Shown: piece after piece, positions 2,019 to 30,922 of the stretch | How the letters are laid out: the number at the start of each line of letters is the position of its first letter | Numbering within the stretch: position 1 is the stretch's first letter | Origin: an uncultured Candidatus Saccharibacteria bacterium | Lineage (GTDB): Bacteria; Patescibacteriota; UBA1384; XYA2-FULL-43-10; 1-14-0-10-43-13 | Direction: 5' to 3' | Length of the DNA stretch: 32,000 bases | Assembly: GCA_964543385.1 (NCBI GenBank) | Contig: CAZIYE010000001.1 | Coordinates: 300,001-332,000 of the forward strand | The notes under the pieces: model-generated | What the model was told of the DNA's origin: nothing | What the model saw: only the letters and a program-made list of their open reading frames with translations | Databases searched by the model: none | Program-made: the position numbers and the translations under genes

Positions 2019-2978
2019 TTAATCAATATTTTTTAGTAAACCTTTTTGCGCACCGATATTCTGTATGACGGAAACTGAGTTTTCTATCCCCCACCTCAAA
2101 GCATCTTTGACCGATTCCTGAGGTATATCTGTTTTCCAATCTTCCTTCAGAAGTCTCCCGAGAAAACCAATAGCAAACGCATCTCCAGCGCCAGTAGAAT
2201 CAGTTACTTGTACAGGACGAGAATTGACGTTATAGAATTCTTTGCCGTCATACGCCTTTGCGCCCTCTTTACCATTTGTCACTACGACTATCTTGGGCCC
2301 ATATGAATATAATTTCATCATTAGCTCTTCAATCTGCGGTCGAACTGGGAAATCAACAAATTTCACCGCCTCCTCTTTATTCAAAAACAGTATCGAAGTG
2401 CATTTCAGAAGATGGCGAAAATGGCTAGCACCTTTTGCAATCTGAATTGAGCCAGGATTCCAAGCAATAAACGAGCCGTTTTCGGCCACATCTTTTACCA
2501 TTCTTTTCTCGATTTCCTCAGTATTATCCCCCATTGGTGCCACAAAATACCATTTCGAATTCAAACCCTTCTTTATCTTCAGACTCTGGTAATCCCTAAC
2601 AGCATGATATGTAAAGATTGTTCTCTCTCCATTTATATTAAAAATTACTGAGAAACCTGTTTGCGATTTATTATCTACAATTATATTGTAGCGATCGACG
2701 CCCTCTTCATCCAGTCGATCTAAAACCCTATTCATCGGTGTATCATCACCAAGCAAAGTGACTATACTAGCCTTATATCCTAATCGAGAAAAACCAACCG
2801 CTGCGTTGCAAGCAGAACCACCAATCTCATAATTAACACTTTTCAATGGTATCTTTTCGCCAAACTCAAAAGTAATGCCCCTGCCGGAGCCCAAAGTTCT
2901 TTCAGAATGCACCTTCAAATCAGGAGAAACAAATACATCCTCGAAAGCATCACCAATTGTTGTAATATCAAATTTCAT
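2019..2978 (-). CDS. PfkB-family (ribokinase-like) sugar or sugar-phosphate kinase
   Basis: 319 aa with the C-terminal TGAGDAF signature typical of PfkB kinases and a GG dipeptide region (EIGGSACN). Its start overlaps the fba stop by 11 nt. Confidence 0.85.
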   Translation of the reverse strand: MKFDITTIGDAFEDVFVSPDLKVHSERTLGSGRGITFEFGEKIPLKSVNYEIGGSACNAAVGFSRLGYKASIVTLLGDDTPMNRVLDRLDEEGVDRYNIIVDNKSQTGFSVIFNINGERTIFTYHAVRDYQSLKIKKGLNSKWYFVAPMGDNTEEIEKRMVKDVAENGSFIAWNPGSIQIAKGASHFRHLLKCTSILFLNKEEAVKFVDFPVRPQIEELMMKLYSYGPKIVVVTNGKEGAKAYDGKEFYNVNSRPVQVTDSTGAGDAFAIGFLGRLLKEDWKTDIPQESVKDALRWGIENSVSVIQNIGAQKGLLKNID

Positions 2979-3789
2979 GATGAGAAAATAATTTAATATA
3001 TTTTTCGACTACCCTTTTTACTTCTTCCATGCCATCTTTTATCGCTTCTCTATAATCTTGTTCCTCAGAGTGCTCAATTGAATTTGTAAAAGCTTTTCTT
3101 ATATTTGTATCAATATTAAATTTCGATACCCCTATATGTATTGCCTCTCGAATATCACCAACAGAAAGCCCTGAAGCGCCATGCATAACAAGTGGAATCT
3201 CTACAACTTCAGCTATTTTCTTCAATAACTTTAGATCTACCTTTTCACCTTTTGGAGCACCGTGCTCATTGCCAACAGAAACAGCTATAGAGTCAACACC
3301 TGTAAGCTCTATAAATTTTCTTACCTCATCGGGCGCACTATAAACCGCCTTGTGTGATAAATGACCGCCTTCTTCACGAGCGATCACTCCTACTTCAGCT
3401 TCAACCGAAACACCATATTTATGGGCAAAATTCACCACTTTTGATGTCAACGTCACATTTTCATCAAAAGAATATTTTGACCCGTCAAACATTATCGATT
3501 TATATCCAACTCTGACCGCTTCGGCAACAACATGAAAATCCTTAGCATGATCAAGATGGATCGCTGCTTTTATGCCTGTTTCTTTTATTTCATTTGTAAC
3601 AATATCAAATATCTGTGATAGTCCCGCATACTCGATTGCACTAGGCGTCGTCTGAATCAATATCGGCACATCAAAATCAGAGGCAGCAGCACAAATTGCT
3701 TTTGTCACTTCTAAATTATTGGTATTAAAAGCCCCGATGGCATAGCCACCCTCTCGAGCTTTCCTTAATTCTTCAGCAACGTTTATCAT
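2968..3789 (-). CDS. fba: Class II fructose/ketose-1,6-bisphosphate aldolase
   Basis: 273 aa. The N-terminus AREGGYAIGAFNTNNLE plus the HLDH and MHGASG motifs are characteristic of class II aldolases. Confidence 0.9.
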   Translation of the reverse strand: MINVAEELRKAREGGYAIGAFNTNNLEVTKAICAAASDFDVPILIQTTPSAIEYAGLSQIFDIVTNEIKETGIKAAIHLDHAKDFHVVAEAVRVGYKSIMFDGSKYSFDENVTLTSKVVNFAHKYGVSVEAEVGVIAREEGGHLSHKAVYSAPDEVRKFIELTGVDSIAVSVGNEHGAPKGEKVDLKLLKKIAEVVEIPLVMHGASGLSVGDIREAIHIGVSKFNIDTNIRKAFTNSIEHSEEQDYREAIKDGMEEVKRVVEKYIKLFSHHEI

Positions 3790-3832
3790 TTTTTGTTCTA
3801 CTTTATAATTTTATAAACTTTTCACCTTTTAA

Positions 3833-3880
3833 CTATTTCAGTGCTTCTATCACTGGTAATTTTTCGCCAGCTAAAAAGTC
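3833..3880 (-). pseudogene. Orphan relic of a pgk 3' end (15 codons plus stop)
   Basis: The reverse strand reads DFLAGEKLPVIEALK-TAG. The intact pgk C-terminus reads EFLAGEKLPGIQALN-TAA. A 21-nt identical run sits at 3853-3873 and 5254-5274, at the same offset from each stop. An in-frame stop lies just upstream, so it is not part of a live gene. Confidence 0.55.
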
Positions 3881-4023
3881 ATTCCGTGAAATCCCACGCG
3901 GGTGGCGTCGGCATTGCGACTACCACTTGGCCTATTTATCGAAATCAGGCCACCAACACTAAAAAAAACTAAAGATAACCCCGATAATGGCCAAGATCTA
4001 ACCGACTATTTTCATTTTTTCTC

Positions 4024-5217
4024 CTAATTCTCAAAATAAGTTAATGATTTTGCCATCTTATCTAATACCAAAATATCTTGATTCGTTAAATTTTGACGAT
4101 CCCTGTTATAGAGAAAAAAGAGATATTCGCCGGTACCTGGAATAGTAAAAGAAATAGAGTAATATGGCTGGTTTTTGCTTTTTGGGATAATTAGATCAAG
4201 CCCTTGAAATGCAACAGTCTTGTAGCTAGCCAACAATTCATTTCTAGTTTTCAAATTCATTCCTCCGACCTGTATAAGCTCATCCTCTTGATCATTCTTG
4301 TTAAGATAATCCCATAGTGGCGCACTCATTACGTACTTTAGACTGTCAATATACCTAGGGTAATAGGTGTTTGGGTTTATTGCACTTCTCCAGAGGTGAT
4401 AGTAGTAGCTTTGAGAACTTTCCTTGTAGTCCTCTGGCGCATGAATCACCCAGAGATCTTTATTGTCCCAAGAAAAGACATCGCCAAAAGCAGAGAGATA
4501 ATCGCAGCCCAAGTTGTATAGATTGCGCTCTTTGTTATAAGTTGCAAGACTAAAATCTTGCGGGATTTCAATTGAATATTCACTACCCTTCCACTTATAA
4601 ACTCCTGTCTCTGATATGAAGTGGTCGCGAGCCTCTTTATTAAGTTCTTTTGTCGTTTGGTCAAGACCCTCTTGGTATTGCCTGGTAGAAATATTCGTCC
4701 CAATCAAAAAAGTTGCAAGAATCACCAATCCAACTATCCCTAGAATCATCGATTTACGATCATAATTAGTCGGTTCTGTCAGTACGGGAGCCATCGCTAT
4801 TTTAGCAATCATGCGTTTATGTCCCCAGAAAGAGCAAGCCAGAAGGGCAATAATGGCAATAGGGACACTTGCAACAATTTCTGGATAAGCTCGATAGATA
4901 GAAGAGACATCAAGAAGTTGTGTCAGTTTGTACCCTTCACTTGTATCAGCTAGAAATAGCAACGGATACACATAGATGATAAAGGACATATACCAAAAAT
5001 CGTAATAGACATAGCCATAAAAAAATCCGGTGGCTAAAACTATCACTATCATGGAGATGGCAACCACAGATCCAATGCCAGCTAAGGCGCCTCCGCCAGC
5101 GAAGCTAGCTAGCATTCCCAGCACTCCTACCAGCAAAAACAGTAAGCTTGCCACGGCAGCGCATATTACTGCAAATCCCAGAGCCCCAAACAGTCGTATA
5201 AACTTGCATCGGTTCAT
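4024..5217 (-). CDS. Hypothetical polytopic membrane protein (~5 N-terminal TM helices plus a ~220-aa Tyr/Asn-rich C-terminal domain)
   Basis: 397-aa ORF with GGAGAGG upstream of the ATG, 16 nt after the pgk stop. No family was recognised. Confidence 0.7.
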   Translation of the reverse strand: MNRCKFIRLFGALGFAVICAAVASLLFLLVGVLGMLASFAGGGALAGIGSVVAISMIVIVLATGFFYGYVYYDFWYMSFIIYVYPLLFLADTSEGYKLTQLLDVSSIYRAYPEIVASVPIAIIALLACSFWGHKRMIAKIAMAPVLTEPTNYDRKSMILGIVGLVILATFLIGTNISTRQYQEGLDQTTKELNKEARDHFISETGVYKWKGSEYSIEIPQDFSLATYNKERNLYNLGCDYLSAFGDVFSWDNKDLWVIHAPEDYKESSQSYYYHLWRSAINPNTYYPRYIDSLKYVMSAPLWDYLNKNDQEDELIQVGGMNLKTRNELLASYKTVAFQGLDLIIPKSKNQPYYSISFTIPGTGEYLFFLYNRDRQNLTNQDILVLDKMAKSLTYFEN

Positions 5218-5233
5218 AATCCCTCTCCAATTT

Positions 5234-6346
5234 TTAATTTAGCGCTTGTATTCCTGGTAATTTTTCGCCAGCTAGAAACTCTAGTGCGGCACCACCACCT
5301 GTTGATATAAACGATATATTCTTATCAAATCCACCTTTTTTGACCACCCCTACAGTATTGCCGCCAGCAATAATAGTAGTCGCTTTTGATTCATTCATCG
5401 CCTTTGCGATCGATTCTGTCCCTGTACAAGAATTCACACTCTCGCTATAACCAAGATTGCCATTCCAAAAAACCGTTTTTGCCTTTTTTATTTCACCAAT
5501 AAATTCCTCTACTGTCTTGGGGCCAATATCTACAATTTTAAACCCGCAATCTACATCATCTGTTACATAATCAGAAGGCAATATTACCTTATTCTTATAT
5601 TTCTTGAGCATCTTTTCGCATAAATTAACCATGCTCTCACTAAACAAGGATTTACTAATATCCATGCCTTGAGCTTTCAAAAAAGTATTAGCTACTTCTC
5701 CGCCAATCAGAATTTTATTAGCCATAGGTGCCAGTTTATTTAGCATATTAGCCTTATCTTCTACCTTTGCACCGCCTATAATCAGAACAAAAGGATTTTG
5801 AGGTTTTTTGACCTTGCTTAAATTTTCGATTTCAGACTGCAAAAGAAACCCTGCATAGCTGGGCAGATAATGAGCAATCGCCTCTACACTTGAATTTGCA
5901 CGATGTGATACAGCGAAAGCATCGTTGACATATATGTCTGCCAAACTAGCTAATTCCTGAGCAAAAAGAGTGTCATTGTCTTCTTCTCGCTTATCCCAGC
6001 GAAGGTTTTCGAGCACCAATATACCTCCTGGCTGGAGAGCATCAGCAATCTTTTTTACACTCTCTCCATTCACACCTGGTGCCATTGTAACTTTTAGATT
6101 CAATAATCTCTGGAGTTCTTTTGCAATTGGAGCTATCGAGGTATCTGGGCTCGATTTACCATCTGGACGGCCACAGTGAGTACCTATAATAATTTTTGCC
6201 TTTTCACCAACAAGATATTTTATCGTGGGTATTACAGACCTGATTCTATTATTATCACTTATAATCCCATCTTTTATGGGAACATTAAAATCGACTCGTA
6301 AAAATACTTTTTTATAATTTAAATTAGCTTCCTGTAATAATTTCAT
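5234..6346 (-). CDS. pgk: Phosphoglycerate kinase
   Basis: 370 aa. The N-terminus KKVFLRVDFNVP, the C-terminal STGGGAALEFLAG and the GGAKV motif are all present. GGAGG lies upstream. Confidence 0.95.
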   Translation of the reverse strand: MKLLQEANLNYKKVFLRVDFNVPIKDGIISDNNRIRSVIPTIKYLVGEKAKIIIGTHCGRPDGKSSPDTSIAPIAKELQRLLNLKVTMAPGVNGESVKKIADALQPGGILVLENLRWDKREEDNDTLFAQELASLADIYVNDAFAVSHRANSSVEAIAHYLPSYAGFLLQSEIENLSKVKKPQNPFVLIIGGAKVEDKANMLNKLAPMANKILIGGEVANTFLKAQGMDISKSLFSESMVNLCEKMLKKYKNKVILPSDYVTDDVDCGFKIVDIGPKTVEEFIGEIKKAKTVFWNGNLGYSESVNSCTGTESIAKAMNESKATTIIAGGNTVGVVKKGGFDKNISFISTGGGAALEFLAGEKLPGIQALN

Positions 6347-6909: not shown

Positions 6910-6939
6910 TTGAGATCCTAGTAAGAAAAAGGTTAAAAT
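6910..6939 (+). promoter_or_regulatory. Candidate sigma70-type promoter for the hydrogenase operon (TTGAGA-N18-TAAAAT)
   Basis: Hexamers at 6910-6915 and 6934-6939. GGAGGG precedes the hydB ATG at 6955. Confidence 0.3.
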
Positions 6940-6954
6940 GTAATTGGAGGGTAA

Positions 6955-7905
6955 ATGCAATCTTTTATAAACAAACACCAGCTAGATCAGATACTCAGTT
7001 ATATTTCGAAGGAATATAAAACATTTGCTACTCAAAAAATTGATAGCAAGGTTGTTTTTGCCGAGTACAGAAAATCCCCCGTACTAATTCCAACGCCAAA
7101 AACAGTAATGTCATTTAAGAAATACCTATGGCCAGATGGCCAATCTCTAGACTCTCCATCATCCTCAAAATTAGCCTTCATAGGTATCACGAACTGCGAC
7201 GCTATTGCCCTGAACAAATTTTTAAGTGAATTTTCCCACACTAACCTATTGCCGAAAAGAGAAGATATCTTGGTTGTATCAACAGAGTGTCAAAAGGATG
7301 AATTTTGTTTTTGTGGTGCTTTTGGCCATGGCAAAATACAATTCTTCGATCTTCATATACAGGAAGAGAAAACCGGCTATTCTATCTTCTCAGGGTCAAG
7401 AATCGGAGAAAAAATTTTAAGAGAAAATGGGGTAAAAAACCATATTAAGAAGCCAAAGTTGAAAAACATCGACCTGGGCGCACAAACAATCTTTGATAAG
7501 AAAGAACTCTCTAAAGCAATTGATGATTTGCCCCACTTTGAGAATTTCTGGCAGAAAATTGCCAATAATTGCTTTGGTTGCGGATCCTGTAGTGCTGTCT
7601 GCCCTCTATGCTTCTGCACAAGACATGAACAAGATAATAAAGATGATGGTTCATGCAGCTCGTGCCTATCGTGGGATTCATGTTTCGCAAAAAATTTCTC
7701 TGAAGTTCAAAACCATCACGACCTACGGCCTGAGCGGATCAACCGTCTATACAATTGGTATCATCATAAATTTGCAAGAGCGTATTTAGATAAAAAAGAT
7801 TTTCTTTGCACTGGCTGTGGACGCTGTATAAAAGCATGCCCAGCTCACCTAAATCAATATAAAATACTTTCTTCGATAGAAAGTCAGGAAGAGAAAATTA
7901 AATGA
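6955..7905 (+). CDS. hydB: Group-3b-type (sulf)hydrogenase beta-like subunit, AsrA-like 4Fe-4S protein
   Basis: 316 aa with two ferredoxin-type motifs, CFGCGSCSAVCP and CTGCGRCIKACP. It is first in a four-gene overlapping operon with gamma, delta and alpha homologues. Confidence 0.8.
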   Translation: MQSFINKHQLDQILSYISKEYKTFATQKIDSKVVFAEYRKSPVLIPTPKTVMSFKKYLWPDGQSLDSPSSSKLAFIGITNCDAIALNKFLSEFSHTNLLPKREDILVVSTECQKDEFCFCGAFGHGKIQFFDLHIQEEKTGYSIFSGSRIGEKILRENGVKNHIKKPKLKNIDLGAQTIFDKKELSKAIDDLPHFENFWQKIANNCFGCGSCSAVCPLCFCTRHEQDNKDDGSCSSCLSWDSCFAKNFSEVQNHHDLRPERINRLYNWYHHKFARAYLDKKDFLCTGCGRCIKACPAHLNQYKILSSIESQEEKIK

Positions 7906-8696
7906 ATAACTTCGATTACAAGGAATATGAAATTCTAACAAAAGAAGAAGCTGCTCCCTCTATATTTACCTTCAAAATATCCGGAAAACTCCAATTTAAG
8001 CCGGGTCAATTTGTCCAAGCAGCAATTCCTCACATCGGCGAATCTACTTTCGCCCCCTGCTCTAATCCATCTCAAAAAGATTCTTTTGAGCTTTGCATTA
8101 GAGGGTGTGGCTCGACGACAAGCGCGATGGCAAAGCTCTTGCCAGGAGACAATCTTCGGGTCAGAGGGCCTTACGGCAATGGTTGGCCGACAGAAAAGTT
8201 GAAGGGCAAAGACATAATCATGGTAGCTGGCGGTATGGGCATAATCCCCCTCCGACCCCTTATTAAGGAAATAATTGCTCATCGTGGCAGCTATGGCAAG
8301 ATTCACCTGATCGGCGGTTTCCGAACTGTAGACCACATTCTATTTAAAGATGAAATAAAAAAATGGAAAAAATATATTTCTATCAATCTCTATATTGAGA
8401 ACATTGCAAACGACCCAGCATACAAAAAAGGCTTAATTACCGAGCCTCTACAACATGAAAAGTTTAATATTAACTCGTCGATTGTCTTGATTTGCGGACC
8501 GGAAATTATGGTACCATTTTGCATAAACACTTTGCTTGATCGAGGTTTTAAAGAAAACCAAATATATATCTCGTATGAACGACGTATGGAATGTGGGATT
8601 GGCGTTTGCCAACACTGTAATATCGGCCAGTATCTGACCTGCAAGGATGGACCCGTCTTTCGATATGATCAAATTAAAACAGAACTTTCCAAATGA
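7902..8696 (+). CDS. hydG: Hydrogenase gamma-like subunit: FAD/NAD(P)-binding oxidoreductase with a C-terminal 2Fe-2S motif (PyrK/AsrB-like)
   Basis: 264 aa with RGPYGNGW, MVAGGMGIIPLRP and the C-terminal CGIGVCQHCN...C motif. ATGA overlap with hydB. Confidence 0.85.
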   Translation: MNNFDYKEYEILTKEEAAPSIFTFKISGKLQFKPGQFVQAAIPHIGESTFAPCSNPSQKDSFELCIRGCGSTTSAMAKLLPGDNLRVRGPYGNGWPTEKLKGKDIIMVAGGMGIIPLRPLIKEIIAHRGSYGKIHLIGGFRTVDHILFKDEIKKWKKYISINLYIENIANDPAYKKGLITEPLQHEKFNINSSIVLICGPEIMVPFCINTLLDRGFKENQIYISYERRMECGIGVCQHCNIGQYLTCKDGPVFRYDQIKTELSK

Positions 8697-9400
8697 GAAA
8701 AGCACTAACATTTTATTCACTTGTCTGCTGCAATGGTTGTAAACAAGAAGCCTTAAATCATTTTGATGATTTTCAAAAAATTCTCAATTTTTATGAAGTT
8801 ACCGAGTTTAATAGCGAAGATGGCGAGATGATTAAGCCATCAGAAGTAGCAATCATCGAAGGAAATCCTGGGGACAAAGATCAAGAAAATTTGCTACGTA
8901 GAATCAGAAAACACTCCAAAATAGTTATTGCTATTGGCGCTTGTGCAAATACGGGAGGATTTCAATCAATCAGAAACAATTTGCCTAAGAAATTAATAAA
9001 TCACGAACCAGTAAAAATTATAGGAGACGTTATAAAGGTTGATTATCAAATACCTGGCTGTCCTATAAATTTCCATGAGCTTTATAGCTGTCTTATTGAC
9101 ATCTATTGGGGGAAAACATTTGTTTTACCACAGCTTCCAGTCTGTTTTGAATGTCGAAAAAATGAAAATGAATGTTTGATAAAGAACAAAAAGGCTTGTC
9201 TCGGGCCCATTACTAGAGCAGGATGCAATAGCGTATGTATAAACAGCGGCGGGTCTTGCCTTGGTTGCCGTGGCACCATCACACAACCCAATATCCCCAA
9301 AATAAGAGAAATCCTGGAGCCAATGATTGGTCAGGAGCAGCTTGAAAAAATTTTGATAATCTATGGCGACAATGGTAAACAAAACTTAAAAATAAAATAA
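8693..9400 (+). CDS. hydD: [NiFe]-hydrogenase small (delta) subunit homologue
   Basis: 235 aa with the N-terminal LVCCNGC, plus GACANTGG and PGCP (proximal-cluster-type motifs). Cys-rich distal region: CFECRKNENEC...CLGPITRAGC...CLGCRG. ATGA overlap with hydG. Confidence 0.85.
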   Translation: MRKALTFYSLVCCNGCKQEALNHFDDFQKILNFYEVTEFNSEDGEMIKPSEVAIIEGNPGDKDQENLLRRIRKHSKIVIAIGACANTGGFQSIRNNLPKKLINHEPVKIIGDVIKVDYQIPGCPINFHELYSCLIDIYWGKTFVLPQLPVCFECRKNENECLIKNKKACLGPITRAGCNSVCINSGGSCLGCRGTITQPNIPKIREILEPMIGQEQLEKILIIYGDNGKQNLKIK

Positions 9401-10584
9401 TGACAGAATCTACTCCAAAATTTATATCTAACGATTATCAAAGATTTTTTGAGAAAATTGTTTTCAACCAAAGATATTCGGAAGTACCAATAATTACCTC
9501 TCGTATTTGTGGAGCTAACTCAGTCGCAAACAACATTACATCGACAAGAGCTATCGAAATTGCATGCGGCATAAACCCAAGCTCTCAGACAGAAAAACTT
9601 CGAGACATGCTGCTGTATGCACAAATAATACAAAGCCATACCCTGTATCTCTATCTCGAAATTTTGCCCTATTTTACCGGCGTTAATTCGCTCTCAGAAT
9701 TGCAAAAAGATCATCAGGAAATATTTAAAAATGCGGTCTGTCTAAAAAATTTTGCCGATAATATAATCAAATCGATCGGCGGAAGATCAATTCACCCCAT
9801 ATCTAATGTACCTGGAGGATTTACAGCCTACCCAACCGTAAAAAGATTAAAAAGTGTTATTGACGAAAGCGCTAATGCAATCCATAGTGCCAAAAATACG
9901 CTGTCTATTTTCGCTAGCTTCGATTATCCAATATTAGAATTAAAAAATGTTATGGGGGCAATTCACCGACCAGGAGAATATATAGTTTCCGGAAATGGCA
10001 TATGGACAAGTGAAGATAAGCACTTTGTGGTCGAAAAGTACAAAGAGCATTTATTGGAAGAACTACAGCCTCATAGTACTGTTAAGTATGGCAGAATAGA
10101 TGGCAAAGAAATAATGGCAGGCCCACTCGCAAGACTAGCTTTGAATAAGTTAGATGATAAAGATGTGGCTGATTTTGTTAAAAGCCTGAATCTTAACCCA
10201 GATTATAATAATCCATTTAACAATATAATAGCTTCTGCAATTGAACTTTATTATTTTACAAAAAAAGCCATAAAGTCTACCAATAATCTGTTAGATAAAG
10301 GCATCTCCATCGAACCTCTAAAGCTGCCAAAAAAATTTAGTATCGGCACGGCTTGTTGCGAATCACCCGATGGAACATTGATTCATTCATATAAATTAAA
10401 CGACGAAGGCAACATTATAAACTGTGATATTGTGACTCCATCAGTATTTAATCTGCCATTATGTGAATCAAACTTAAAGTTATTGAATGATGTCATTAAA
10501 AATTATGATCCAGTTGAAAAAGATAAAATTACAAAGTTGTTATTTAGATCATACCGCCTCTGCAAAAACTGTGGATCGCATTAA
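9400..10584 (+). CDS. hydA: [NiFe]-hydrogenase large (alpha) subunit homologue with degenerate active-site motifs
   Basis: 394 aa with clear family blocks (QSHTLYLYLEILP, SIHPISNVPGGF, ESPDGTLIH, IVTPSVFNL, and a C-terminal CKNCGSH). However, the L1 motif reads RICGANSVAN and the invariant Arg is Asp. TAATG overlap with hydD. Confidence 0.8.
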   Translation: MTESTPKFISNDYQRFFEKIVFNQRYSEVPIITSRICGANSVANNITSTRAIEIACGINPSSQTEKLRDMLLYAQIIQSHTLYLYLEILPYFTGVNSLSELQKDHQEIFKNAVCLKNFADNIIKSIGGRSIHPISNVPGGFTAYPTVKRLKSVIDESANAIHSAKNTLSIFASFDYPILELKNVMGAIHRPGEYIVSGNGIWTSEDKHFVVEKYKEHLLEELQPHSTVKYGRIDGKEIMAGPLARLALNKLDDKDVADFVKSLNLNPDYNNPFNNIIASAIELYYFTKKAIKSTNNLLDKGISIEPLKLPKKFSIGTACCESPDGTLIHSYKLNDEGNIINCDIVTPSVFNLPLCESNLKLLNDVIKNYDPVEKDKITKLLFRSYRLCKNCGSH

Positions 10585-10589
10585 TAATT

Positions 10590-11144
10590 ATGATAAAAAT
10601 CTTTCAAACACCAACAGCATTAGACTTCAGGATTCTCGAAGCTATAAACGGCTTTCATAACCCATTTTTCGACCAGATAATGGTATTTGCAAGCAATATT
10701 GGCGAGTACGCAATAATTTGGCTTGTTATTGGCTTATGTTTTTCAATATTTGACAAAAAGCATGGCAGGCATATGTTTGCTATATTGATCATGGCTTTAA
10801 TCATCGAAGTTATCATCAATGACGGTCTGTTAAAAAACATATTTTATCGTGAACGCCCATTTTTATTATTTCCAGCTCTTCACCATTTGGGTCCAGATGC
10901 TATCAATAGTGCCTTCGTCTCTGGTCATACAGCTTCGAGCACTGCAATCTTCTTAGTTTTAATAAAGTTTTATAAAAAAGCGACCTCTCCCCTGTTGGCG
11001 CTTGTTATATTAATGATTTGGACAAGATTCTATCTGGGCATGCACTATCCAAGTGATATCATCGGTGGAATAGCAACCGGTATAGTATCGTCGTGGCTCG
11101 CTTTTCTAATTGGTAAAAAAGTACTAAGATACAATCATAATTGA
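10590..11144 (+). CDS. PAP2-family phosphatase (undecaprenyl-diphosphate / lipid phosphate phosphatase-like)
   Basis: 184 aa, polytopic. The three PAP2 motifs are present: YRERPF, SGHT and TRFYLGMHYPSD. Confidence 0.85.
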   Translation: MIKIFQTPTALDFRILEAINGFHNPFFDQIMVFASNIGEYAIIWLVIGLCFSIFDKKHGRHMFAILIMALIIEVIINDGLLKNIFYRERPFLLFPALHHLGPDAINSAFVSGHTASSTAIFLVLIKFYKKATSPLLALVILMIWTRFYLGMHYPSDIIGGIATGIVSSWLAFLIGKKVLRYNHN

Positions 11145-11186: not shown

Positions 11187-11690
11187 ATGGTTTCAGAAGC
11201 GCCAAGACCACAATTAGCAGAACAAGAAACCGATCTAACATTGCCACAGTTGTCCCAAATCACCAAAGTAGACGATCCCACTCTTGTAATTGAACCATCT
11301 ATTAAAGAAGATATCGAAGATGTGATAAAAACCGGCGACAGTGACCAATTGCCTCCCGCAGAGACTGTTAGAGCAGCTAGAGAAAGCCGACCCTACCACC
11401 CAAGAATCAAGGAAACAAGGGATGAGAAAATGATGAGACTTACAAAAGAAATATCATACCTGCAAGACCAACTAATGGCTATAAAGACTGTTTCTATGAA
11501 AACCGGTATGTCAGAAATTTACGAGGAAGCTATACTCAAGTTAGAAGAGTCATTATCATTCAAGCAATTGGAGCAAGCAGTAAACCTGAAGAATCATGAC
11601 TATGCCAAAATTGAAGAACTAAAGTCAAAAATAGCAGTAGTAAAAAAAATGTTGACAGAACATAAGATGAAACAAAAGAGAGCGATTTAG
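11187..11690 (+). CDS. Hypothetical acidic/coiled-coil protein
   Basis: 167-aa ORF with AAAAGGA upstream. No family was recognised. It converges on gap with only a 10-nt gap. Confidence 0.5.
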   Translation: MVSEAPRPQLAEQETDLTLPQLSQITKVDDPTLVIEPSIKEDIEDVIKTGDSDQLPPAETVRAARESRPYHPRIKETRDEKMMRLTKEISYLQDQLMAIKTVSMKTGMSEIYEEAILKLEESLSFKQLEQAVNLKNHDYAKIEELKSKIAVVKKMLTEHKMKQKRAI

Positions 11691-11700
11691 GCTAATATAT

Positions 11701-12696
11701 CTAGGCGCTTTTTGAAATGTGATTTGCTAAGTCGACTAAACGTTCGCTATATCCCCACTCGTTATCATACCAAGCAATTACTTTTACCAAATCGCCATCG
11801 ACAACCTGAGTCAATGATAGATCAACTGTCGTCGAGTTTTTCATGCCTATCAAATCAGACGAAACAATTTCTTCATTAGTAGTTGCTAAGATTCCTTTCA
11901 TTTCTCCATCTTCAGCTTTTTCAAAAGCCTTGTTGATTTCCTCGATATCTGTCTTTTTCTTTAGAACCACAGTAATATCTGAGAGCGATACAACTGGCGT
12001 CGGTACCCTTACAGCCAAACCATCAAATTTTCCTTTTAGTGTTGGGATAGTTTTAAAAGCAGCTTTTGCAGCGCCAGTTGATGTGGGCACTATATTAACT
12101 CCTGCAGCCCTTGCTCTGCGCAAATCTTTGTGAGGACCATCAATAAGATTTTGATCAGCAGTATAAGAATGGATTGTTGTCATCAGCGATTTTTCAATTC
12201 CAAAATTGTCTTCCAGAACTTTCATAACTGGAGTAATGCAATTAGTAGTGCAAGAAGCGTTTGAAACAATAATTTCTCCTTTGTACTGATCAGCATTCAC
12301 TCCCATAACATACATCGCTGTTTCATCGTCTTTAGCCGGCGCGGACATCACAACTTTTTTTGCCCCAGCGTTGATATGCACCTGACAATCTACCTGAGTA
12401 AGGAAATGACCGGTGCACTCTAGTACTATATCAATCTCCAGCTCTTTCCAGGGAAGGTTTGAGGGATCTTTTTCTGCATAAGAATGAACTATTTTTTTAT
12501 CAATAATCAAATCTCCATCATCAAACCCAACTTCATGGTCCCAAATACGATAACAACTATCATATTTAAGCAAATGAGCTAGAGTTTTGACATCTGTTAG
12601 ATCATTTATAGCGACAAGTTCCATACCTTCGCGCTCTGTAATAATTTTTGCTGCTGCCCGACCAATTCTGCCAAAACCATTTATTGCAACTTTCAT
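11701..12696 (-). CDS. gap: Glyceraldehyde-3-phosphate dehydrogenase
   Basis: 331 aa with MKVAINGFGRIGR, the active-site SNASCTTNC and WYDNEWGYS. Confidence 0.95.
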   Translation of the reverse strand: MKVAINGFGRIGRAAAKIITEREGMELVAINDLTDVKTLAHLLKYDSCYRIWDHEVGFDDGDLIIDKKIVHSYAEKDPSNLPWKELEIDIVLECTGHFLTQVDCQVHINAGAKKVVMSAPAKDDETAMYVMGVNADQYKGEIIVSNASCTTNCITPVMKVLEDNFGIEKSLMTTIHSYTADQNLIDGPHKDLRRARAAGVNIVPTSTGAAKAAFKTIPTLKGKFDGLAVRVPTPVVSLSDITVVLKKKTDIEEINKAFEKAEDGEMKGILATTNEEIVSSDLIGMKNSTTVDLSLTQVVDGDLVKVIAWYDNEWGYSERLVDLANHISKSA

Positions 12697-12721
12697 AAAA
12701 ACTCCGTTATTTGTATAACTT

Positions 12722-13477
12722 TTATTTTTTCAAAATATCTTTTGATTCGCTAAATATTTTACAAATTTTAACAAATTCACCTGCTCGTACACTAGCGCCT
12801 CCGACAAGCACACCATCAATCTCAGGTCTTTCAGCATAACCTTTAGCATTTTTAGAATTTACACTACCGCCATACAAAATTGGAGTTTCAGTATGAACAA
12901 TCTCTCGCAATTTATTGGCAACTTTTGCGACGTATTCAGGACTTGCATTATCACCAACAGTTCCGTTGCTGATCGCCCATATAGGTTCATATGCAACGAC
13001 AATATCCTTATAATATTTTTTAGGGACATGGCTTAATGCTTCGTGAAGCTCTCGGATAGGTTGGACAAGAGTTCCACTTTTCTTGCGCTCACCAACACAA
13101 ATGATTGGCCTTAGTCCTGCCTTCAGACAAGCCAAGACTTTTTCATTAACATCAAAGTTAGTTTCTCCGAAATGTTCTCTTCTCTCGGAATGTCCGACTA
13201 TTGTATACTCTGCAACCTCTTTCATCATAATAGGAGAAATTTCACCAGTATAAGCACCATCAGGCTCATAAAAAACATTTTGGCCGCCCAGAGAGAGCTT
13301 CGTACTTTTACCTATAATTTGAGCTACCTCAGTTAGCCAAATAGATGGAGGGCAAGCAATAATCTTAACTTTATCTATCGAGGCAACGTTATTACGCACA
13401 GTAGTGGCCAGAACATTAGCATCTGCGATGCTAGAAATATACATTTTCCAATTGGCAACAATCAATGACTGATTCAT
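12722..13477 (-). CDS. tpiA: Triosephosphate isomerase
   Basis: 251 aa with VANWKM, GHSERR and AYEPIWAI. GGAGGGG lies upstream. Confidence 0.95.
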   Translation of the reverse strand: MNQSLIVANWKMYISSIADANVLATTVRNNVASIDKVKIIACPPSIWLTEVAQIIGKSTKLSLGGQNVFYEPDGAYTGEISPIMMKEVAEYTIVGHSERREHFGETNFDVNEKVLACLKAGLRPIICVGERKKSGTLVQPIRELHEALSHVPKKYYKDIVVAYEPIWAISNGTVGDNASPEYVAKVANKLREIVHTETPILYGGSVNSKNAKGYAERPEIDGVLVGGASVRAGEFVKICKIFSESKDILKK

Positions 13478-15836: not shown

Positions 15837-15859
15837 GGCGGGGGCGTCATGCCCCCGCC
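15837..15859 (-). terminator. 9-bp all-GC hairpin overlapping the stop codon of the 306-aa ORF
   Basis: GGCGGGGGC (15837-15845) pairs with GCCCCCGCC (15851-15859), with a 5-nt loop containing part of the TGA stop. No U-tract follows, so terminator function is uncertain. Confidence 0.4.
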
Positions 15860-16767
15860 GCCGGATTTTCCTCCCCTTTTTTCTTCGATCGACGGATCTT
15901 GGATAAACGTTTCCGCCGGTCGAATTGGATCGGTCCAAGTGTATGCTGGAAATATCCTGGCATGACGCCCACCGAAACTCCAAACATTACACGTAGAGTA
16001 TAATAGTTGGTGATCATCCCATCACCACTTTCGACTTTGTCCATATCCTTCCGAACAAAGTCTAGCATCTCTTCCAGTACTTTACTCGGGTACTTTTGCC
16101 AGCCCCTAGCTACAAGCTGATACTTCCTCTCAACCACACTCGGTGTTCGAGGGATAGTGCCTGTTTTTTTGGGCTTCAAGGTAGGACTCATCCTTGAAAT
16201 TGGCATTTTTTTGGAGCGATGAACTAAAACTTTCCATTTTTCCAATTCATCGCTCGACAAGCGGTCGTGGATTAGCAGTCGCACTGCCTCACCATTCATC
16301 TGGAACTGCGCACCCAGGTCGCCGCAGGAGAGGATTGGACGATTGACTTTTATCCTTTTACGGATATAAGAAATTACCGACCAACATTTTTCCTTTTCGT
16401 ACTTGTGATAGTCCGATGTCAGCCTCTCAATACGTGATTGCATAATGCGATTTATGCATAATCCACGATCATATGCGTCTCTAATGTCTGCATCGAGACG
16501 TAAAAACGCCTCCTTAACTGTCCAGATAGTAGTCCGGTGAATTCGAGCAAGATGCTCCTTCTCGACATAACGCCTGTAATTCACCTTAACAGTCGGATTG
16601 AGCCTCTTTTGGGCTCTCTCGCTTTGAGTTAATTGAACCCGTCTAGTCACCTCTTCGATAACTTGCACAAGTTTGTCTTCTACCAATCCACTTCGCACCA
16701 TGAAAGCATGGGCTTGCTTCGGATGAAGATCCTTGCTACGACGATGATCGCGATTTTTTCCAGCCAC
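15847..16767 (-). CDS. Orphan basic (Arg/Lys-rich) 306-aa protein with a possible helix-turn-helix
   Basis: The ORF starts at GTG, with AGGGGGA 4 nt upstream. It is GC-enriched relative to its neighbours. The segment SCGDLGAQFQMNGEAVRLLIHDRL resembles a sigma-region-4/LuxR-type HTH. No family was recognised. Confidence 0.6.
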   Translation of the reverse strand: MAGKNRDHRRSKDLHPKQAHAFMVRSGLVEDKLVQVIEEVTRRVQLTQSERAQKRLNPTVKVNYRRYVEKEHLARIHRTTIWTVKEAFLRLDADIRDAYDRGLCINRIMQSRIERLTSDYHKYEKEKCWSVISYIRKRIKVNRPILSCGDLGAQFQMNGEAVRLLIHDRLSSDELEKWKVLVHRSKKMPISRMSPTLKPKKTGTIPRTPSVVERKYQLVARGWQKYPSKVLEEMLDFVRKDMDKVESGDGMITNYYTLRVMFGVSVGVMPGYFQHTLGPIQFDRRKRLSKIRRSKKKGEENPAAGA

Positions 16768-23720: not shown

Positions 23721-24668
23721 ATGAATATTTCTCATTTTTATAAAAAAATAGTCTCAGAATTTGCTAGCGCTGGCTCTCCATCGCCGGAACTTGATGCAAA
23801 TGTCCTTATTGAAAATGTTATAGGAAAAGATAGAACGTTCCTATTCTCCCATCCGTTAGAGCCACTTACAAACGCGCAATATTACAAACTTAGACGGTTT
23901 GTAAACAGACGAAAAAAAGGCGAACCTATCGCCTACATTACGGGCCATAAAGAATTTTACGGACTCGATTTTGCTGTAAACAAAAATGTCCTTATCCCCC
24001 GCCCTGAAACTGAATTCCTAGTTGCTAAAGCATTGGAATTTCTCAAAAGAAAAAGTGATGAATTAAAAAATAGGAAAATTAATATTCTAGACATAGGCAC
24101 CGGCTCCGGCTGTATAATTATTTCGATAATAAAATCATTTTCCGCGCTCGCATTTCCTCCTTATGCTAGATTCTTTGCTGCCGATATATCCAGAAAGGCA
24201 CTTATAATCGCTAAAAAAAATACCAAGCGATTATTGTTCGATGTCGGAGACCAAAATCTAAGCTCTAGCTACCGTTCGAATAATAAAATAAAGTTCATTG
24301 ACTCAGATCTATTTTCTAATCGCCTTCTTCGCAAAAAACCTGCCTCGCCGGCAGGCGGGTTTGATATAATAATTGCCAATCTCCCCTATGTACCAGACCA
24401 AACAGAAAATAGAAGATTGAAGTTTGAAAATATTTATTTTGAGCCACCATCTGCAATCTTTGCCCCTGACAACGGCGCTAGAACTATTAAAAGATTTATA
24501 GACCAATCCAAAAGTTACATAAACAAGAATAGTCTCATTTTAATTGAATTAGATCCAAGGAATGCAGTTGGGCTTGAAAAATACGCCCGAAAGACATACC
24601 GTGAGGCAAAAATAGAACTAAAAAAAGATTTAGCTGGCTTGGATCGTTATCTGATAATCGAGAATTAA
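23721..24668 (+). CDS. prmC: Release-factor glutamine N5-methyltransferase (PrmC/HemK family)
   Basis: ~315 aa, immediately after prfA. It has a GTGSGCI SAM-binding motif, and the catalytic tetrapeptide reads NLPY instead of NPPY. The track start at 23718 is TTG; the ATG at 23721 is preferred. Confidence 0.85.
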
Positions 24669-26008
24669 ATTCTTTTTTCGAGTTGTTCTCTAAGCTCTTC
24701 ATACCCTGGCTTACCAAGAAGAGCGTACATATTATTTTTATAAGCTTCCACGCCTGGTTGATTGAAAGGATTTACACCTAAAATATAAGCGCTGATAGCA
24801 CAAGATTTTTCAAAGAAATAAATCAATTTGCCCAGATAAAAAGGCGTTAATTCTGGGATACCGATCAAAATATTAGGAACTCCTCCATCAGAGTGTGCTG
24901 CTGCAGTGGCAGCCATCGCCTTTTTATTGACGAAATTGAGAGTCTTACCTGCAATAAATTCAAAACCATCAACGTTGTTGTCAGACTCTGGAATCGTTAA
25001 ATCTTTACCTGCCTGGTCGACAAATAGAATTGTCTCAAAAATTGTTCTCTCCCCTTCTTGGATATATTGCCCAAGGGAATGAAGATCTGTCGAAAAATCA
25101 ACTGCTGCCGGAAATATTCCCTTACGATCCTTACCTTCGCTTTCTCCAAATAGCTGTTTTAACCATTCAGAAAAGTAATGCATTTTGGGCTCATAATTTA
25201 CAAAAAGTTCTATTTTTTTACCATTTTTATAAAGAATGTTTCTGGCGACAGCATACTTATTCGCAATATTATCTAGCCTATCTGTAGAATATTTTTCCTC
25301 ACCATCTATTGCGCCATTTAACAGTTCTTTTACATTAATTCCGGCAACTGCAATTGGTAAAAGTCCAACCGCCGTCAATACCGAAAAACGGCCTCCGATA
25401 TTATCAGGAACAACAAAAGTTTCATATCCCTCTTTTTCTGCAAGATCTTTTAACGCTCCTTTATCTGCATCTGTCGTAGCAAATATTCTTTCTCTAGCTC
25501 CTTCTTTACCATATTTTTCTTCTAAAATATTCTTGAAAATTCGGAATGCCAAAGCTGGTTCAGTAGTCGTTCCGGACTTAGATATCACATTGATAGAGAT
25601 GTCTTTGTCTTTAACAAGATCCAGAAGGTCAGACAGATAAGAGCCACTCATATTTTGGCCCGCAAAGTATATCTCCGGGCAATGCCTCGTATCCTTATTT
25701 AGATTATTATAGAAGTTAGGTTGCAATGCCTCGATGACTGCCCTAGCCCCAAGATACGAACCACCTATGCCGATTACTACAAAAACATCTGAATTTTTAC
25801 GAATTTTCTCTGCGGCTTTTTGTATTCTAGCAAATTCACTTTTATCATAATTTGATGGTAAATTAACAAAGCCAAGCATGCCATTACCTTCACCATTTTT
25901 CTCTACAATTTTCCGATTAGCCTCTGCAACATCACCCTCCATCAGATTCATTTCATCAACGCTCACAGACTGATCAATATTACCACAATCCAGTATAATA
26001 TTATTCAT
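24665..26008 (-). CDS. pgi: Glucose-6-phosphate isomerase
   Basis: 447 aa with [20 protein letters not shown] and the C-terminal NPFNQPGVE. Its stop shares the palindrome TTAA with the prmC stop. Confidence 0.9.
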
Positions 26009-29909: not shown

Positions 29910-30374
29910 TTAATCTATTTTTTCCTCTGGAAATAATGTCCCTAGTGTTTGTTGATCCCAACGTATTTCCCCATCAACCCCATTTTTATAATGAAGCCTC
30001 TTGTATAACTCCTTAACTTTCGGAACAAACTCCCGTAAAAATATTATATCGGCCATAACTCTATCTGTTCTACTCCGTATATCCATATAGGCAATGCCGT
30101 CTTCCGCCCTTAAAGCAACTTTAGCCATCTCTTCACGAAGATCTAACGAAAAATCACTCAATTTTTTATGGATCTCTCTAAAGCTTTGGCTGGCTTTATC
30201 TTCTCCGTTTAAAAGGTCAGGATCAGATTCTATCATAGTCAATGTACAATGCCGTCCATATGCTATCATGGGCTTTAAATTATTATAAAGAGTGATCTCG
30301 TCTAGCAATCTTTTAACTTCGGCCGAAATCTCTTCTGGACTAAGATATTCTTCTCCATTCTCTATTTCTGACAT
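29910..30374 (-). CDS. Hypothetical acidic 154-aa protein
   Basis: The ORF overlaps the upstream gene by 1 nt (TGATG) and ends 4 nt before the gatB ATG. No family was recognised. Confidence 0.55.
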   Translation of the reverse strand: MSEIENGEEYLSPEEISAEVKRLLDEITLYNNLKPMIAYGRHCTLTMIESDPDLLNGEDKASQSFREIHKKLSDFSLDLREEMAKVALRAEDGIAYMDIRSRTDRVMADIIFLREFVPKVKELYKRLHYKNGVDGEIRWDQQTLGTLFPEEKID

Positions 30375-30922
30375 CAGATTGCCTTTGTATATTCTAATAA
30401 CTTGTTAGCTGCTGCTGACAATTCAATATTTGATATTTGATACTCATTTTCATGGGCTATTTGGTTCCTGACCTTGTGCCCCTGCCATATTTCATTATAC
30501 AAATTTTGGTTGACCGATGACTGAGCCTCCCTCAACCTATCTGCAAAAGTTTCCCCACTATAGCCTTGTGCTTTTAGCACATAGTCGACCAATTTATCAG
30601 CTTCTATCACTAAATGTTTCAACTCTATTTCACTATTCGTATTTAGCATTGATTCAATCTGGTGTCTCTTCGTAACTACATAGTTTCGATCTTCCAGGCT
30701 CATACCGACCTTATTGACACCAAATTTAATGCCTTTAAAAGGTAAGGAAACGAGCCACCATAAAGCCTTGAATAGACCAATAACTATTATCTCCAGAATG
30801 GTCTGCTGATTCTGATTCCTCTTACCTTTATAATTTTGATTATAAGACATATTCTGACTTTTCTCGTTACTGTCATCTCGAGCTTGTGCGAGAGATCCCA
30901 TGTGCTCCATGAAATTTCTCAC
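30374..30922 (-). CDS. Membrane-anchored protein with a C-terminal DUF4145/HEPN-like domain
   Basis: 182 aa (GTG at 30922; an alternative ATG at 30910 has AAGGTGA 9 nt upstream). It has an N-terminal Asn/Gln-rich region and one TM helix (ILEIIVIGLFKALWWLVSLPF). The C-terminal helical domain carries an Rx4H motif (HKVRNQIAHE). Confidence 0.55.
   Translation of the reverse strand: MRNFMEHMGSLAQARDDSNEKSQNMSYNQNYKGKRNQNQQTILEIIVIGLFKALWWLVSLPFKGIKFGVNKVGMSLEDRNYVVTKRHQIESMLNTNSEIELKHLVIEADKLVDYVLKAQGYSGETFADRLREAQSSVNQNLYNEIWQGHKVRNQIAHENEYQISNIELSAAANKLLEYTKAI

Follow-up and report, generated by a model that had tools for sequence, protein, structure and literature searches.

Loss of NiFe-site residues from the large-subunit homologue of a group 3b-type operon in Candidatus Saccharibacteria

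The [NiFe] hydrogenases of group 3b are represented by SHI from Pyrococcus furiosus, by Hyh from Thermococcus kodakarensis and, in bacteria of the candidate phyla radiation (CPR), by the hyd1 operons. The CPR 3b clades hyd1 and hyd2 were defined by Jaffe et al. in 2020, and a loss of cysteines was noted there for CPR Ehr only (PMC7304191). Elsewhere, CPR 3b operons have been treated as hydrogenases or sulfhydrogenases, and motif loss is unmentioned (PMC10811913). Here we describe an operon of this type in a stretch of 32,000 nucleotides (the window) from an uncultured Candidatus Saccharibacteria bacterium (assembly GCA_964543385.1, contig CAZIYE010000001.1, positions 300,001 to 332,000 of the forward strand). 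Four tightly packed genes occupy positions 6955-10584 (+) of the window in the order beta, gamma, delta, alpha. The subject of this analysis is the last of them, the large-subunit homologue alpha (9400..10584, +; 394 amino acids), for which a previous sequence-only reading had proposed a dismantled NiFe site.

The window operon shares with the group 3b systems the four-gene organization and its best sequence and structure matches. With the CPR hyd1 operons it further shares the genomic position, the cofactor ligands of beta, gamma and delta, and an alpha subunit that ends on a histidine. It differs from these systems in an alpha subunit that is devoid of the second Cys of the N-terminal ligand motif L1, of the active-site Arg, of an Asp-Pro pair and of a Glu-bearing strand. 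Moreover, hypC is lost, and alpha and delta evolve under relaxed constraint.

Three other groups of proteins are related in part. AsrAB resembles the beta-gamma part of the complex with respect to the Fer4_22 domain of beta and the FAD_binding_6, NAD_binding_1 and DHODB_Fe-S_bind domains of gamma (PMC7304191). However, the module of the window is still tied to homologues of delta and alpha, and no gene for an AsrC-like sirohaem catalytic subunit was found in the window (Pfam). HupK and HoxV show large-subunit similarity without enzyme activity (PMC12134894). They mature a co-encoded true hydrogenase together with HypC-type chaperones, whereas the window contains neither hypC nor a second large subunit, and its alpha occupies the structural-gene position of the operon. 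Ehr, Mbx and NuoD are large-subunit homologues without NiFe-binding cysteines that have kept the iron-sulfur (FeS) cluster of the small subunit. In contrast to the window complex, which is soluble, derived from group 3b and free of membrane subunits, and whose nearest neighbours are always 3b proteins, they are membrane-bound and derived from group 4. To our knowledge, comparable transitions are known only from such membrane-bound group 4 enzymes (Ehr, Mbx, complex I). In the open-access literature we found no account of a Cys-deficient derivative of group 3b, and the window complex appears to be the first group 3b case of a hydrogenase-derived non-hydrogenase, that is, a soluble 'ex-hydrogenase'.

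Active-site residues of the alpha subunit

Alpha matches the Pfam family PF00374 (NiFeSe_Hases) with 63.5 bits at a cutoff of 25.8. When alpha was compared to PDB chains by means of phmmer, the top matches were T. kodakarensis HyhL (5yxy_A, E = 4e-49) and P. furiosus SHI alpha (E = 6e-47). Mvh, Frh and the NAD-reducing enzymes ranked well below the 3b chains, and the first group 4 protein, FHL subunit 5, reached an E-value of 1.8e-4 only. AlphaFold2 (AF2) predicted a complete large-subunit fold with high confidence (pLDDT 92.9, pTM 0.93). The best Foldseek match of this model was P. furiosus SHI alpha (9nf0_H, TM-score 0.91).

The motifs that surround the NiFe site are altered at several positions. 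In HMMER alignments to solved 3b chains, the L1 motif RICsfCsaAH corresponds to R35-I-C37-G-A-N40-S-V-A-N44 (nt 9502..9531, +); C37 is kept, the second, bridging Cys is replaced by N40 and the His by N44. The EAPRG block reads E-S-P-D324-G (nt 10360..10374, +), with the Asp codon GAT at 10369-10371. D324 falls in the column of R355 of P. furiosus SH1, the Arg above the active site. The C-terminal motif L2, DPCISCSVH in the solved chains, reads RLCKNCGSH and is directly followed by the stop codon (nt 10555..10584, +). Its CxxC pair (C388 and C391) and the His are kept, and the Asp-Pro is lost. In addition, alpha is shortened at its N-terminus by about 28 residues relative to the solved alpha chains, such that the match begins at chain residue 42, and by 19-21 residues relative to the nearest canonical relatives, whose P-K-I-E-G-H strand is absent. 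The missing strand is the RxEGH strand with the proton-relay Glu (E17 in P. furiosus SH1). A longer start is excluded by an in-frame TAA at 9376..9378 (+), which is read directly from the sequence. Multiple alignments computed with MAFFT for 60, 29, 153 and 92 homologues were all concordant with the HMMER assignments. The sequence-only reading had named the same ORF (open reading frame), codon positions and stop codon, the two Asn in L1, the Asp in place of the Arg and the shortened N-terminus, and all of these agree with the sequence and with the alignment columns.

The same reading had also described the C-terminus correctly as RLCKNCGSH with a terminal His, and had counted the absence of an extension for a maturation endopeptidase as a further deviation. 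This part does not stand. All 66 canonical CPR hyd1-type alphas (66/66) and many other 3b sequences end at the His as well, and the missing extension is therefore no evidence of degeneracy. Such extensions are naturally absent in several active hydrogenase groups (PMC7294309). Maturation throughout the hyd1 clade presumably involves no C-terminal endopeptidase, an unusual trait in group 3.

The three partner subunits, which had been regarded as intact, are so in their domains and FeS ligands. Beta (6955..7905, +) is an AsrA-like FeS protein (Fer4_22, E = 6.5e-22), gamma (7902..8696, +) is the FAD- and NAD(P)H-binding subunit with a [2Fe-2S] cluster (FAD_binding_6, NAD_binding_1, DHODB_Fe-S_bind), and delta (8693..9400, +) is the hydrogenase small subunit (Oxidored_q6, E = 5e-21). 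Their Pfam domains are complete, and together the four genes show the domain content of a group 3b 'sulfhydrogenase' operon. In alignments with canonical relatives, every Cys column that ligates an FeS cluster in beta, gamma or delta is conserved. This includes the C-terminal Cys cluster of gamma and, in delta, the proximal-cluster set CxxC, GAC (GxC) and PGCP plus eight further cysteines. According to Pfam and the alignments, the window thus contains the operon for four subunits, its FeS, FAD and NAD(P) partners intact, that is expected of a functional group 3b system.

An assembly error can be rejected, because the window shows 0 mismatches to two independent Logan assemblies over 20.6 kb (SRR12261226) and 17.1 kb (SRR12261225). 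A split gene or a longer N-terminus was considered as well and discarded. In the window the TAA at 9376-9378 intervenes, and at the related locus L004 the 104-aa ORF between delta and alpha belongs to no family, and tblastn detected no canonical alpha N-terminus there.

Degenerate relatives, hypC and evolutionary rates

A search of 5.8 billion proteins identified two sequences with the same degenerate pattern, P0002 (61% identity) and P0003 (56%), whose motifs read RICG[AS]NS[VI]ANN, E[SG]P[DG]G and xLCxxCGxH. The next relatives, P0004-P0021 from Patescibacteria (39-46% identity), are fully canonical. An exhaustive phmmer search of 1.84 billion cluster representatives yielded the degenerate proteins P0124, P0125, P0127, P0128, P0129, P0134 and P0163 among the very best matches, and P0338 emerged from a profile search. 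In all, at least ten related proteins carry the defects. The closest locus in GTDB representative genomes is L013 (62% alpha identity). The sequence-only reading had named canonical motifs in close relatives, with a deviation of this assembly alone, as a finding that would speak against it. This is not the case, as relatives with 35-61% identity carry the same substitutions.

The second L1 Cys is present in 82/82 canonical hyd1 alphas and in 0/10 degenerate ones, where it is replaced by N, S, D, L or H. The active-site Arg is found in 1/10 and the Asp-Pro before the C-terminal CxxC in 0/10 degenerate sequences. C37 is kept in nine of the ten and C388/C391 in eight; further cysteines are lost in P0128, P0134 and P0338. 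Among the 127 columns that are conserved to at least 97% in the 82 canonical alphas, 38 are kept, 36 lost and 53 mixed in the ten degenerate sequences. The lost columns cover the N-terminal P-x-I-E-G-H strand, the second L1 Cys, the Arg and the Asp-Pro before the CxxC. The only residues newly fixed in the degenerate clade are S41 and I76.

Phylogenetic trees were computed by neighbour-joining on distances derived from p-distances. In the gamma tree, the degenerate lineages form one clade that is sister to L005/L012, which supports a single origin of the main clade. The alpha tree also groups the degenerate sequences, where long-branch attraction is possible, and L010 and L005 have no firm place in the GAPDH tree. 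A separate case is P0300 (L012, 10001-11236; 12 contigs). All four Cys are still there, but neither the EGH strand nor the Asp-Pro remains, and the Arg is lost from its block, which reads EAPQG. The 6.3 kb that follow the gene yielded no hypC; they contain a truncated ABC gene and, after it, a transposase of the rve family. Both the gamma and the PGK tree place P0300 with the canonical L005, a hint that its decay is independent and at an earlier stage. Partial loss of the Cys/Arg motifs was also seen in the 3b-like proteins P0176, P0205, P0231, P0234 and P0261 from other subclades. All these forms are rare: most are single clusters on short contigs, compared to more than 80 canonical hyd1 clusters. 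Soluble 3b hydrogenases may have degenerated several times.

The genomic context links the degenerate and the canonical operons. Part of the loci compared here stem from a scan of GTDB representative genomes, and 13 canonical loci have enough flanking sequence (L005, L007, L008, L014, L015, L017, L018, L020, L022 and L024-L027). According to the gene tables, the conserved gene order is trigger factor ... PfkB-FBP aldolase-PGK, beta-gamma-delta-alpha, ABC ATPase-ABC permease-hypC(-), GAPDH-TIM-CofD-UvrC. The five degenerate loci, that is the window, L004, L010, L011 and L013, share this genomic position. By position, the four genes of the window are orthologous to the CPR hyd1 group 3b operon.

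The gene hypC lies 0.4-4.3 kb 3' of alpha in 13/13 canonical loci and was detected by tblastn in 0/5 degenerate ones; Fisher's exact test gives p ~1e-4 at face value, with the five degenerate loci probably representing one evolutionary event. As the degenerate lineages are one clade in the gamma tree, hypC and the active site were most plausibly lost together in one ancestral event. No hypC remnant was found in the window, L003 and L004 (tblastn, E < 0.1), and Pfam revealed no hyp genes of any kind in the 32-kb window. In a HypC profile search, none of the best 120 of 201 matches lay on degenerate contigs, including the contig of 671,273 bp, which is the size of the longest contig recorded for this alpha. 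At least 27 canonical alpha contigs were paired with a HypC among the same best 120 of 201 matches. Contigs were paired by equal length in bp, which makes this a crude check.

Since dS is saturated or undefined for most pairs, rates were related to GAPDH in place of dN/dS. The yardstick is the median ratio of the p-distance of a gene to that of GAPDH, for pairs with a GAPDH p-distance of 0.08-0.30. For alpha, the ratio is 2.98 in the degenerate clade (2.73-3.98, n=10) versus 1.39 in canonical genomes (0.85-2.29, n=39), and the two ranges are disjoint. For delta it is 2.35 versus 1.38. The corresponding values are 1.86 and 1.70 for gamma, 2.21 and 2.02 for beta, 1.59 and 1.62 for PGK, and 1.64 and 1.38 for TIM. 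Relative to GAPDH, alpha thus evolves about 2.1-fold and delta about 1.7-fold faster in the degenerate clade, and beta and gamma are unchanged. In canonical genomes, alpha belongs to the slowest genes of its locus (for example L007-L008: alpha 87%, GAPDH 85% identity), and in the degenerate clade it is the fastest (window-L004: alpha 56%, GAPDH 87%; L010-L011: alpha 35%, GAPDH 76%). Constraint is relaxed on alpha and delta, but not on beta or gamma. The full-length degenerate alphas are intact ORFs of 379-402 aa, and their dN of 0.31-0.33 compares to a saturated dS of at least 2.4 (Nei-Gojobori; bounds only). Judged by these sequence comparisons, alpha is still under purifying selection.

Activity of the complex

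Several studies of related enzymes illustrate what the missing elements do. HypC hands Fe(CN)2CO to the apo-large subunit, the second Cys of the N-terminal motif of HycE is thought to be the first ligand of Fe(CN)2CO, and the N-terminal peptide of T. kodakarensis HyhL docks the Ni chaperone HypA (PMC12134894). In P. furiosus SH1, the closest solved relative, the exchange E17Q leaves 20-30% activity, and with R355K about 2% of the H2 oxidation and 16% of the H+ reduction remain (PMC8163435). With all of these elements missing at once from the degenerate lineage (Glu strand, Arg, bridging Cys and hypC), a loss of hydrogenase activity is very likely.

The explanation that we prefer, and which we consider probable, is an H2-inactive complex in which alpha would be unable to receive or hold NiFe(CN)2CO and in which the NAD(P)H/FeS module would still be working. 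Such a complex would neither make nor consume H2. Weakened purifying selection would maintain alpha as a folded companion of the FeS-bearing delta; its role would mainly be structural, in the folding and assembly of delta, or that of a dead-end electron store. The working core would be the beta-gamma module, which by homology is AsrAB-like and should bind FAD, NAD(P)H, [2Fe-2S] and [4Fe-4S]. This module may oxidise NAD(P)H or reduce NAD(P)+ against a non-proton acceptor, and the complex presumably survives because such redox work is still useful. The location of the operon between PGK and GAPDH suggests a re-oxidation of glycolytic reducing equivalents. Given the sulfhydrogenase side activity and the AsrAB-like beta-gamma module (PMC7304191), polysulfide or S0 would be the most obvious candidate acceptor, which is a guess. 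The sequence-only reading had arrived at a similar proposal, namely that the complex may have ceased to be a hydrogenase and may now be a retained NAD(P)H/FeS module with a metal-free or remodelled alpha. This proposal gains support from the shared substitutions, the loss of hypC, the relaxation of alpha and delta only, and the intact folded alpha. With regard to the residual activity of the complex, and to a metal-free versus a remodelled alpha, we can only infer.

Some observations weigh against an H2-inactive complex with an empty alpha. Most degenerate sequences (8-9/10) have kept C37, C388, C391 and the proximal-cluster ligands of delta, and this retention of cysteines could mean a surviving metal or thiol site instead of an empty pocket. 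The scan for hyp genes covers 32 kb, and hypABDEF or a second hypC could sit elsewhere in the genome; the HypC profile result stems from the best 120 of 201 matches. The pairs used for the rate comparison are non-independent and their distances saturated.

The retained cysteines are at the centre of a different explanation, which seems unlikely to us: alpha may have been repurposed, with C37, C388 and C391 forming a new site beside the proximal [4Fe-4S] cluster of delta. This site could be a mononuclear metal centre or a redox-active CxxC thiol or persulfide, and it would reduce a sulfur compound or disulfide with electrons flowing from NAD(P)H via gamma and beta to delta. The retention of these residues (C37 in 9/10, C388/C391 in 8/10) despite alpha identities of 35-61% agrees with this idea, as do the purifying selection on alpha and its predicted intact fold; furthermore, all cluster ligands of delta are kept, such that the electron wire still ends at alpha. 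However, the pocket contains no newly conserved residue, as S41 and I76 are the sole clade-specific ones. The replaced L1 position is variable (N, S, D, L, H), and more cysteines have disappeared in P0128, P0134 and P0338. Retention of 3/3 ligand columns is weakly above a background of about 30-40%, and the change of alpha from the slowest group to the fastest is the behaviour of a relaxed rather than a re-optimised site. The most specific form of the idea, in which the emptied pocket would be a new catalytic site whose three Cys, the C-terminal CxxC among them, receive electrons from the intact proximal [4Fe-4S] cluster and carry out an NAD(P)H-driven reduction of polysulfide, persulfide or disulfide, is in our view quite improbable. 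If it were true, the complex would be a soluble parallel to the switch of the hydrogenase site to another substrate in complex I and Mbx, and P0300 with its four Cys and the at least ten three-Cys forms would be transition stages in living lineages.

A working hydrogenase with three-Cys (+ Asn) coordination, matured by hyp genes elsewhere in the genome, would account for the retained fold, the three ligands, the terminal His and the complete electron-transfer chain, and the Pfam scan for hyp genes covered the window. Nevertheless, we give this explanation very little credence: the bridging Cys and the Arg were lost along with the syntenic hypC and with the N-terminal region that carries the Glu strand and would dock HypA, even the conservative single exchanges E17Q and R355K cripple P. 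furiosus SH1, and a relaxed alpha is the opposite of what the catalytic subunit displays in the 13 canonical relatives. It is just as hard to believe in an artefact or a terminal decay, that is, in an assembly or sequencing error or in a recent functionless pseudogene. The number of lost catalytic residues and the fast substitution would be in line with it. On the other hand, two independent assemblies without mismatch exist, the defects are shared at saturated synonymous divergence in open frames of 379-402 aa, the stop/start coupling to delta is kept, dN is well below dS, and AF2 predicts a complete and confident fold.

An H2-inactive complex would have consequences for annotation. The degenerate proteins pass the Pfam test and carry the JGI/IMG label 'sulfhydrogenase subunit alpha'. 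HydDB filters out Nuo, Ehr, NARF and HmdII (PMC5037454). A homology-based classification without a check of the ligands is likely to call the degenerate alphas group 3b. Surveys would then ascribe H2 production or the activity of a sulfhydrogenase to these CPR lineages, most likely in error, and the genomes of these ultra-small bacteria are probably mis-scored as hydrogen-metabolising. A check of four columns plus hypC would correct the annotation. Furthermore, the clade is a natural experiment on a multi-subunit metalloenzyme after abandonment of its cofactor: relaxation affects the hydrogenase half (alpha and delta) and spares the diaphorase half (beta and gamma), and the apparently dead subunit is still kept. 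The operon is located amid the glycolysis genes of a minimal fermenter, and the acceptor of beta-gamma is probably central to redox balance in these organisms.

Genes surrounding the operon

The genes of the operon overlap by 4 nt (beta/gamma), 4 nt (gamma/delta) and 1 nt (delta/alpha; TAATG at 9398-9402). The best promoter candidate directly upstream of beta is TTGAGA-18-TAAAAT (6910..6939, +) with 10/12 sigma-70-like matches; promoter-like sites are not enriched in comparison to shuffled sequences, and the site is a candidate only. The operon is embedded in a glycolysis cluster with PfkB, FBP aldolase and PGK upstream (2019-6346) and GAPDH and TIM downstream (11701-13477). PGK (5234..6346, -), whose position is equal in all related loci, and GAPDH (11701..12696, -), which also served as the rate yardstick, are the synteny anchors according to the gene tables. 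PGI is encoded at 24665-26008. This arrangement is kept across the related CPR genomes (L004-L027), both canonical and degenerate.

Directly 3' of alpha, a membrane phosphatase of the PAP2 family is encoded (10590..11144, +; Pfam PAP2, E = 2.8e-19), which is the only membrane protein gene in the window operon. Orthologues follow alpha in L003 (2992-3540), L004 (9177-9767) and L013 (9603-10169), and overlap the 3' end of alpha in L004 and L013. According to the gene tables and tblastn, PAP2 follows alpha in 0 canonical loci and is confined to the degenerate subclade of the window. An ORF of 167 aa without Pfam match (11187..11690, +) occupies the slot that holds an ABC ATPase and an ABC-2 permease in relatives and, in canonical loci, also hypC. 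Tblastn searches of this slot with HypC, ABC ATPase and ABC permease gave no match; the window lineage, alone among its relatives, has also lost the ABC transporter.

ARAGORN detected no tRNA genes in the 32 kb. ORFs of 397, 205, 306, 154 and 182 aa without Pfam match are located at 4024-5217, 1383-2000, 15847-16767 and 29910-30922; the one of 397 aa sits between FBP aldolase and PGK. Related operons contain small unrelated genes. In canonical loci, genes for a 23S_rRNA_IVP (PF05635) or a PDDEXK_3 protein are inserted between gamma and delta or between delta and alpha (L005 7878-8249, L007 9576-9956, L008 9538-9960), and L010 (1569-2303) and L012 (8454-9191) contain a short-chain dehydrogenase gene between gamma and delta. 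The operon appears to be an insertion hotspot.

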